A stretch of DNA of 64,000 bases from Escherichia coli (GTDB lineage: Bacteria; Pseudomonadota; Gammaproteobacteria; Enterobacterales; Enterobacteriaceae), in assembly GCF_050920415.1 (NCBI RefSeq), contig NZ_CP169309.1. One strand, written 5' to 3'. Of this stretch, positions 17,300 to 17,488 are shown piece after piece; position 1 is the stretch's first letter; every line of letters begins with the position of its first letter. The notes beneath the pieces were generated by a model. It made no database searches. It was given only the letters and a program-made list of their open reading frames with translations, and was not told the DNA's origin. The position numbers and the translations under genes are program-made.

Positions 17300-17488
17300 A
17301 TTTTATTTGCTGGGCGCACTATTAGTGGTAGTGGCTGGTGGAGTCTATGCGCTGCAAATGAAGGGTAAAAGCGGTGTCGCGCTAGTAGTGGCAAAAGAAA
17401 TTCATTAATACGACACGTTTCATTAAGATTTTTCGCAGGTAACCACCTATAGTCATTGTCGTTAATAAAAAATGACAGGCGATAGGGT

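Follow-up and report, generated by a model that had tools for sequence, protein, structure and literature searches.

The analysed stretch of DNA, hereafter the window, comprises 64,000 nucleotides of the Escherichia coli chromosome and carries the genes glpQ, inaA, yfaE, nrdB and nrdA (Table 1). inaA is a textbook mar/sox/rob regulon gene, and reporter constructs routinely use its promoter. Control of inaA by MarA, SoxS and Rob is already established, as is the class II architecture; inaA is presumably among the listed class II promoters, with sites centred at −41.5. An earlier note on this DNA had named the gene inaA, and this identity was confirmed. In a megablast search, the region 16900-17700 was matched in 5,425 of 5,426 complete E. 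coli genomes, and strain MFDS1022581 was 100% identical to the window across it. The PGAP annotation of this strain shows a partial LysR gene (− strand), a partial 'hypothetical protein' (+ strand) and inaA.

Two features flank this region. The 368-aa hypothetical ORF between glpQ and the LysR fragment lies inside a segment of 30-33% GC (15350-16850) and gave no match in Pfam, NCBIfam or PADLOC. It is present in the window and in O157:H7-type strains, absent from K-12 and from U12A-type strains, and flagged as frameshifted by PGAP in the otherwise identical MFDS1022581; it looks horizontally acquired. Between inaA and yfaE there is a REP-like element (18147-18195), which scored 34 bits against the Rfam family naRNA4, below the gathering score of 59.5. 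This sub-threshold match downstream of inaA was all that an Rfam scan of 16600-18200 returned.

Table 1. Features of the inaA locus and of the sequences compared with it. Positions are those of the window; positions in other inaA loci are preceded by the handle of the locus.
Feature	Position	Strand	Basis or remark
glpQ	14178-15311	+	
AT-rich hypothetical ORF, 368 aa	15531-16637	−	
LysR-family regulator gene, C-terminal fragment (K-12 pseudogene yfaH)	17067-17309	−	PGAP partial gene in identical strain; yfaH annotated here in K-12
Deletion junction (1,880 bp) at short imperfect direct repeat	17302-17314		TTTATCTG[C]TGGG in intact allele
MFS transporter gene, 3' remnant (about the last 36 codons and TAA)	17302-17408	+	intact orthologues share the stop
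Candidate class II mar/sox/rob box ACGACACGTTTCATTAAGAT	17410-17429	+	consensus match, layout, conservation
−35-like TTAAGA	17423-17428	+	4/6 to TTGACA; 19-bp spacer; overlapped by the second element of the box
−10 hexamer TATAGT	17448-17453	+	read directly; conserved as TATAnT across genera
Predicted transcription start	G17461	+	by analogy with micF; places box centre at −41.5
inaA, 216 aa, annotated lipopolysaccharide kinase InaA	17489-18139	+	
yfaE	18192-18446	−	followed by nrdB and nrdA
micF class II marbox ACAGCACTGAATGTCAAAAC	51083-51102	−	18 bp before TAGAAT; same window, 34 kb from inaA
glpQ-inaA interval, three E. coli architectures	window 17067-17408; L029:1309-3529; L030:1397-1600		
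Inverted repeat copies outside E. coli	L008, L014, L022:1426-1440; L007:1427-1441; L015:1418-1432; L016, L026:1426-1440; L004:1436-1450		

Upstream of the inaA promoter, the window holds the remains of two divergent genes. The intact MFS gene, an ORF of 396 aa whose TAA stop corresponds to 17406-17408 and whose C-terminus reads ...YLLGALLVVVAGGIYALQMKGKSGV..., was found in Escherichia sp. MOD1-EC7003, Escherichia sp. E1V33 and E. whittamii, and its protein matched Pfam MFS_1 with E = 6e-59. E. coli O157:H7 carries the same intact MFS gene together with an intact divergent LysR regulator of 291 aa, the last 67 residues of which match the NCBIfam model NF007272 (the YfaH model). A BLAST comparison of the window with the intact O157:H7 locus produced two blocks overlapping by 13 bp at 17302-17314, which points to a deletion of 1,880 bp between imperfect short repeats; the repeat copies at the junction were read directly from the sequence. 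The LysR 5' part, the intergenic region and about 360 MFS codons were lost. On the reading that we favour, 17302-17408 is dead coding sequence left after a deletion between short direct repeats, an event that also cut the divergent LysR gene down to yfaH. K-12 has the same deletion junction as the window, and its yfaH pseudogene is the same LysR remnant, but K-12 lacks the AT-rich hypothetical gene between glpQ and yfaH that the window strain has. A 40-aa ORF at 17286-17408 (+ strand), MIKFIFYLLGALLVVVAGGVYALQMKGKSGVALVVAKEIH, was considered as a small protein and rejected as a deletion chimera: its GTG start lies in LysR-antisense sequence and is CTG in K-12, and the MFS tail forms its body. 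That this ORF is a real gene is unlikely.

Marbox-like sequences were searched for with the 20-bp consensus AYnGCACnnWnnRYYAAAYn, which has 14 specified positions and is said to go back to Martin et al. in 1999. The candidate box ACGACACGTTTCATTAAGAT agrees with it at 11 of the 14 positions, the best value in 17211-17470, with ACAC (17413-17416) as the first recognition element and ATTAAGA (17422-17428) as the second, and it is the only sequence in 17300-17488 with three mismatches or fewer. Matches of that quality are as frequent in the window as in shuffled sequence (135 vs 137 ± 12), an echo of the published remark that the genome contains some 10,000 copies of the marbox, most of them inert.

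The layout is more telling. Class II marboxes overlap the −35 hexamer and are positioned as in micF (PMC9638938), and the micF promoter, read in K-12, was used as the positive control: its box, the core of which is a MarA ChIP-seq site, ends 18 bp before the −10, and the annotated +1 lies 8 nt past the end of the −10, which places the box centre at −41.5. The candidate box of inaA is likewise forward and lies over the −35, with a gap of exactly 18 bp between its end and TATAGT, as expected of a class II site, and the same arithmetic as for the micF +1 predicts a start near G17461. The whole window was then scanned for a composite pattern, namely a forward box with at least 11 of 14 consensus positions followed after 18-19 bp by a −10 with at least five of six matches. 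Exactly two matches were found in the 64 kb, inaA and micF, with 0.9 chance occurrences expected. Only 80 bp separate the stop codon of the MFS gene from the inaA ATG, and by our own arithmetic the chance of a composite match in the correct orientation within these 80 bp is of the order of 6e-4. A scan of 16900-17600 for sigma-70 promoters and terminators found nothing, which fits an activator-dependent promoter whose −35 is poor.

A weight matrix ranked the sites differently. It was built from 32 MarA ChIP-seq 15-mers bound by MarA in vitro, inaA not being among them (Sharma et al. 2017, PMC5684230, Table 1), and its training sites score 3.7-20.3 bits (median 13.5). The matrix yielded no strong site anywhere upstream of inaA. 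The candidate box scored just 2.2-2.4 bits, below the GCAC site that had drawn the attention of the earlier note (4.6), a forward site at 17381-17395 (6.4) and a backward site at 17422-17436 (5.9). As a locator the matrix was set aside for its misleading ranking of candidates, and its scores are retained as counter-evidence. The backward site (− strand) was rejected, its first recognition element not being conserved even in K-12. Two further matches lie inside the first 11 codons of inaA (17492-17522, + strand): AAAGCACGATGAATTTAAT at 17503-17521, with 12 of 14 consensus positions, and GCAGTTTCAGCAAAG at 17492-17506, with 7.9 bits. Both are probably chance matches, since they lie past the predicted start and their DNA sequence is not conserved in other genera.

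Conservation was assessed in a genome scan that gave 25 inaA loci, of which the upstream regions of 18, from Escherichia, Citrobacter, Pseudocitrobacter, Leclercia, Intestinirhabdus, Shimwellia and Pluralibacter, were analysed. Between genera the flanks could not be aligned, and what is kept is a block [G/A]CAY...YTTAAGA followed after about 18 nt by TATAnT. In nearly every lineage the best or near-best of the 368 candidate positions was a forward site separated from the aligned −10 by 17-19 bp; this gap is 18 bp in Escherichia and 19 bp in Citrobacter and Leclercia, and the orthologous sites of the latter two genera reach matrix scores of up to 8.5-10.9 bits. Both the site and its layout are thus conserved in orthologous promoters. 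TTAAGA is the most conserved block upstream of inaA, each of its bases being common to six to nine of nine other lineages. Outside Escherichia the first recognition element stands one base further from TTAAG. Such a shift is compatible with the class II spacing of 18 or 19 bp that Martin et al. reportedly described in 1999, yet it is also a sign of looseness.

Within E. coli, the glpQ-inaA interval exists in three architectures: intact LysR and MFS genes (O157:H7-type), the 1,880-bp deletion (the window and K-12), and glpQ directly before inaA. The last type has a 202-bp spacer without LysR or MFS sequence, is found in about 1,050 genomes, those of the 90-95% identity band such as U12A, and begins to be homologous to the window only at about 17390. 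Its box, ACAACACGTATTATTAAGAT, still has 11 of 14 consensus positions and still ends 18 bp from TATAGT; the three substitutions that separate it from ACGACACGTTTCATTAAGAT all fall at N or W-compatible positions, a pattern that we estimate would arise by chance in roughly 15% of cases. The retention of the box in U12A-type strains is therefore supportive and not decisive. The candidate box is retained in all three architectures.

Outside E. coli, an inverted repeat (T)CTTAAG-N5-CTTAAG(A) lies over the −35 and the spacer, corresponding to 17423-17440 of the window. Its downstream half decays stepwise in Escherichia, from CTTAAGG through CTTCAGG and CCTCAGG to TCGCAGG in the window. The repeat may be the operator of some other regulator. 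No regulator gene is adjacent to inaA at the Citrobacter locus, where the upstream ORF of 358 aa is, as we take it from size and synteny, glpQ. In strains with intact genes, only 1 bp and no terminator separate the end of the MFS gene from the box, and read-through or LysR-dependent input could be strain-specific because three different sequences stand directly upstream of the box. A lineage-specific control of inaA, through such strain-dependent inputs or through a decayed repressor operator no longer used by E. coli, is conceivable but unlikely.

The behaviour of the promoter in published experiments agrees with a weak site at this position. The primers of the PinaA reporter of Rossi and Dunlop map to 17211-17234 and 17442-17462 of the window (PMC5257004), so that the fragment contains the TATAGT −10 and ends at 17462, by the predicted start. 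This fragment (17211-17462) responds to MarA weakly and gradually, with a fitted Kd of 9832 vs 822 for micF (PMC5257004 supplement). The first recognition element of the candidate box starts with an A where G/C is near-invariant, which would make the box a weak MarA site. The 33 MarA ChIP-seq peaks do not include inaA, and their authors state that most known marboxes prefer SoxS or Rob (PMC5684230); a missing peak is as expected for a weak MarA box. Under butanol, inaA was expressed at 8% of the wild-type level in a rob deletion strain, and it was down in rob mutants selected on isoprenol (PMC7537768, PMC7653855). Full-text literature searches for site sequences and for soxbox and robbox terms found no printed inaA marbox.

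From these results, we consider it likely that the marbox of inaA is the forward class II site at 17410-17429, and that the GCAC stretch further upstream is a dead remnant of the MFS gene. Three other readings were weighed. According to the first, the conserved block is only a core promoter with TTAAGA as its −35, or the site of another regulator, and MarA, SoxS and Rob act indirectly or through a site that cannot be recognised. TTAAGA is indeed conserved much more strongly than the first recognition element, the candidate box has a low matrix score, and the inverted repeat of the other genera resembles an operator. Nevertheless, most lineages retain an nCAY element at marbox spacing, and in them the full site ranks at the top by matrix or consensus, the layout equals that of micF, and the isolated promoter fragment responds to MarA dosage, so this reading is unlikely.

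A second possibility, which we regard as quite improbable, is that the functional box is the matrix-best site at 17381-17395 (GCTAGTAGTGGCAAA; 20-mer 17378-17397), centred at about −73.5 and thus of an upstream, class I/III type. This site has the top matrix score of the upstream region (6.35-6.45 bits) and is conserved within Escherichia. However, about 0.15% of positions score equally, 0.7 such sites are expected in the reporter fragment, and the site lies within the MFS coding remnant and lacks conservation both in U12A-type E. coli and outside the genus. Moreover, it is forward, whereas the published box near −72, that of fpr, is reversed (PMC9638938).

The third reading concerns the GCAC-containing stretch that the earlier note had put forward as a possible marbox. 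The string ctgggcgcactattagtggtag is present, but it occupies 17310-17331 instead of 17320-17345, with its GCAC at 17316-17319, about 10-14 nt to the left of the position given there. The 20-mer aligned on this GCAC (17313-17332) matches the consensus at 8 of 14 positions, a value equalled by 7.8% of the 20-mers of the window, and is absent from the 135 better matches; its first recognition element is perfect, and it has nothing like the second. About 0.3% of positions reach its matrix score, so that the 260-bp responsive fragment should hold some 1.7 sites of at least 4.6 bits. Taken as a marbox, the stretch does not exceed chance level. It is forward and about 138 bp upstream of the predicted start, and to our knowledge no marbox promoter layout places a forward box there. 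The stretch begins in the deletion junction, and its codons specify L-G-A-L-L-V-V in the last transmembrane helix of the MFS protein; most of the changes that it shows between Escherichia species are synonymous in the MFS frame, and in Escherichia sp. E1V33 and E. whittamii the motif itself is GCGC through a synonymous change of GCA to GCG. It is missing from the approximately 1,050 E. coli genomes of the U12A type and from every other genus examined. Read in this frame, the stretch is relic coding sequence of a deleted transporter gene and not a regulatory site. That it should nevertheless be a working upstream marbox, perhaps a half-site for Rob, is extremely improbable, even though it lies inside the MarA-responsive fragment and its matrix score exceeds that of the weakest training site. 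The earlier note was thus right in its general expectation, as a marbox-like site in a functional layout does lie upstream of inaA, and wrong about the 20 bases: as far as this analysis tells, the best-supported site is elsewhere, about 95 bases downstream of where the earlier note had put it.

With the box at 17410-17429, a hypothesis regarding the activation of inaA may be put forward. The 80 bp before the ATG would constitute an activator-dependent sigma-70 promoter whose −10 is good and whose −35 is poor. A monomer of MarA, SoxS or Rob would insert one helix-turn-helix into ACAC and the other into ATTAAGA, and would touch sigma-70 region 4, the beta flap and the alpha C-terminal domain, so recruiting RNA polymerase, as contacts to these three elements are seen in the class II complex of SoxS with micF (PMC9638938). 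The activator contacts would make up for the weak −35, and inaA would thereby come under salicylate and weak-acid (MarA), superoxide (SoxS) and Rob-activating signals.

The significance of this assignment is low, and its useful outcome is a correction of the location of the activator site in the promoter of a known regulon member. It also illustrates that neither the degenerate marbox consensus nor a weight matrix alone can locate such sites, and that the deciding evidence is the position relative to the −10 together with conservation across species.

Among known systems, the class I/III promoters (zwf, with its box at −61.5, fpr and marRAB) respond to the same activators through the same degenerate 20-bp box as is proposed for inaA (PMC9638938). 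Their boxes sit upstream of the −35, and are reversed in fpr and mar, whereas the candidate inaA box is forward and overlaps the −35. No box of the class I/III type was found upstream of inaA, the GCAC and 17381 sites being forward and at unsuitable distances. The closest counterpart of the inaA promoter is that of micF, which has the same activators and, as proposed for inaA, a forward 20-bp box over a weak −35, an 18-bp gap to the −10 and a box centre at −41.5. The two promoters differ in the quality of the box, which in micF combines GCAC with GTCAAAA (13 of 14 consensus positions) and in inaA ACAC with ATTAAGA (11 of 14). They differ likewise in their response: micF appears among the MarA ChIP-seq peaks and reaches saturation at low MarA, whereas inaA is not a peak and has a fitted Kd that is roughly 12-fold higher.
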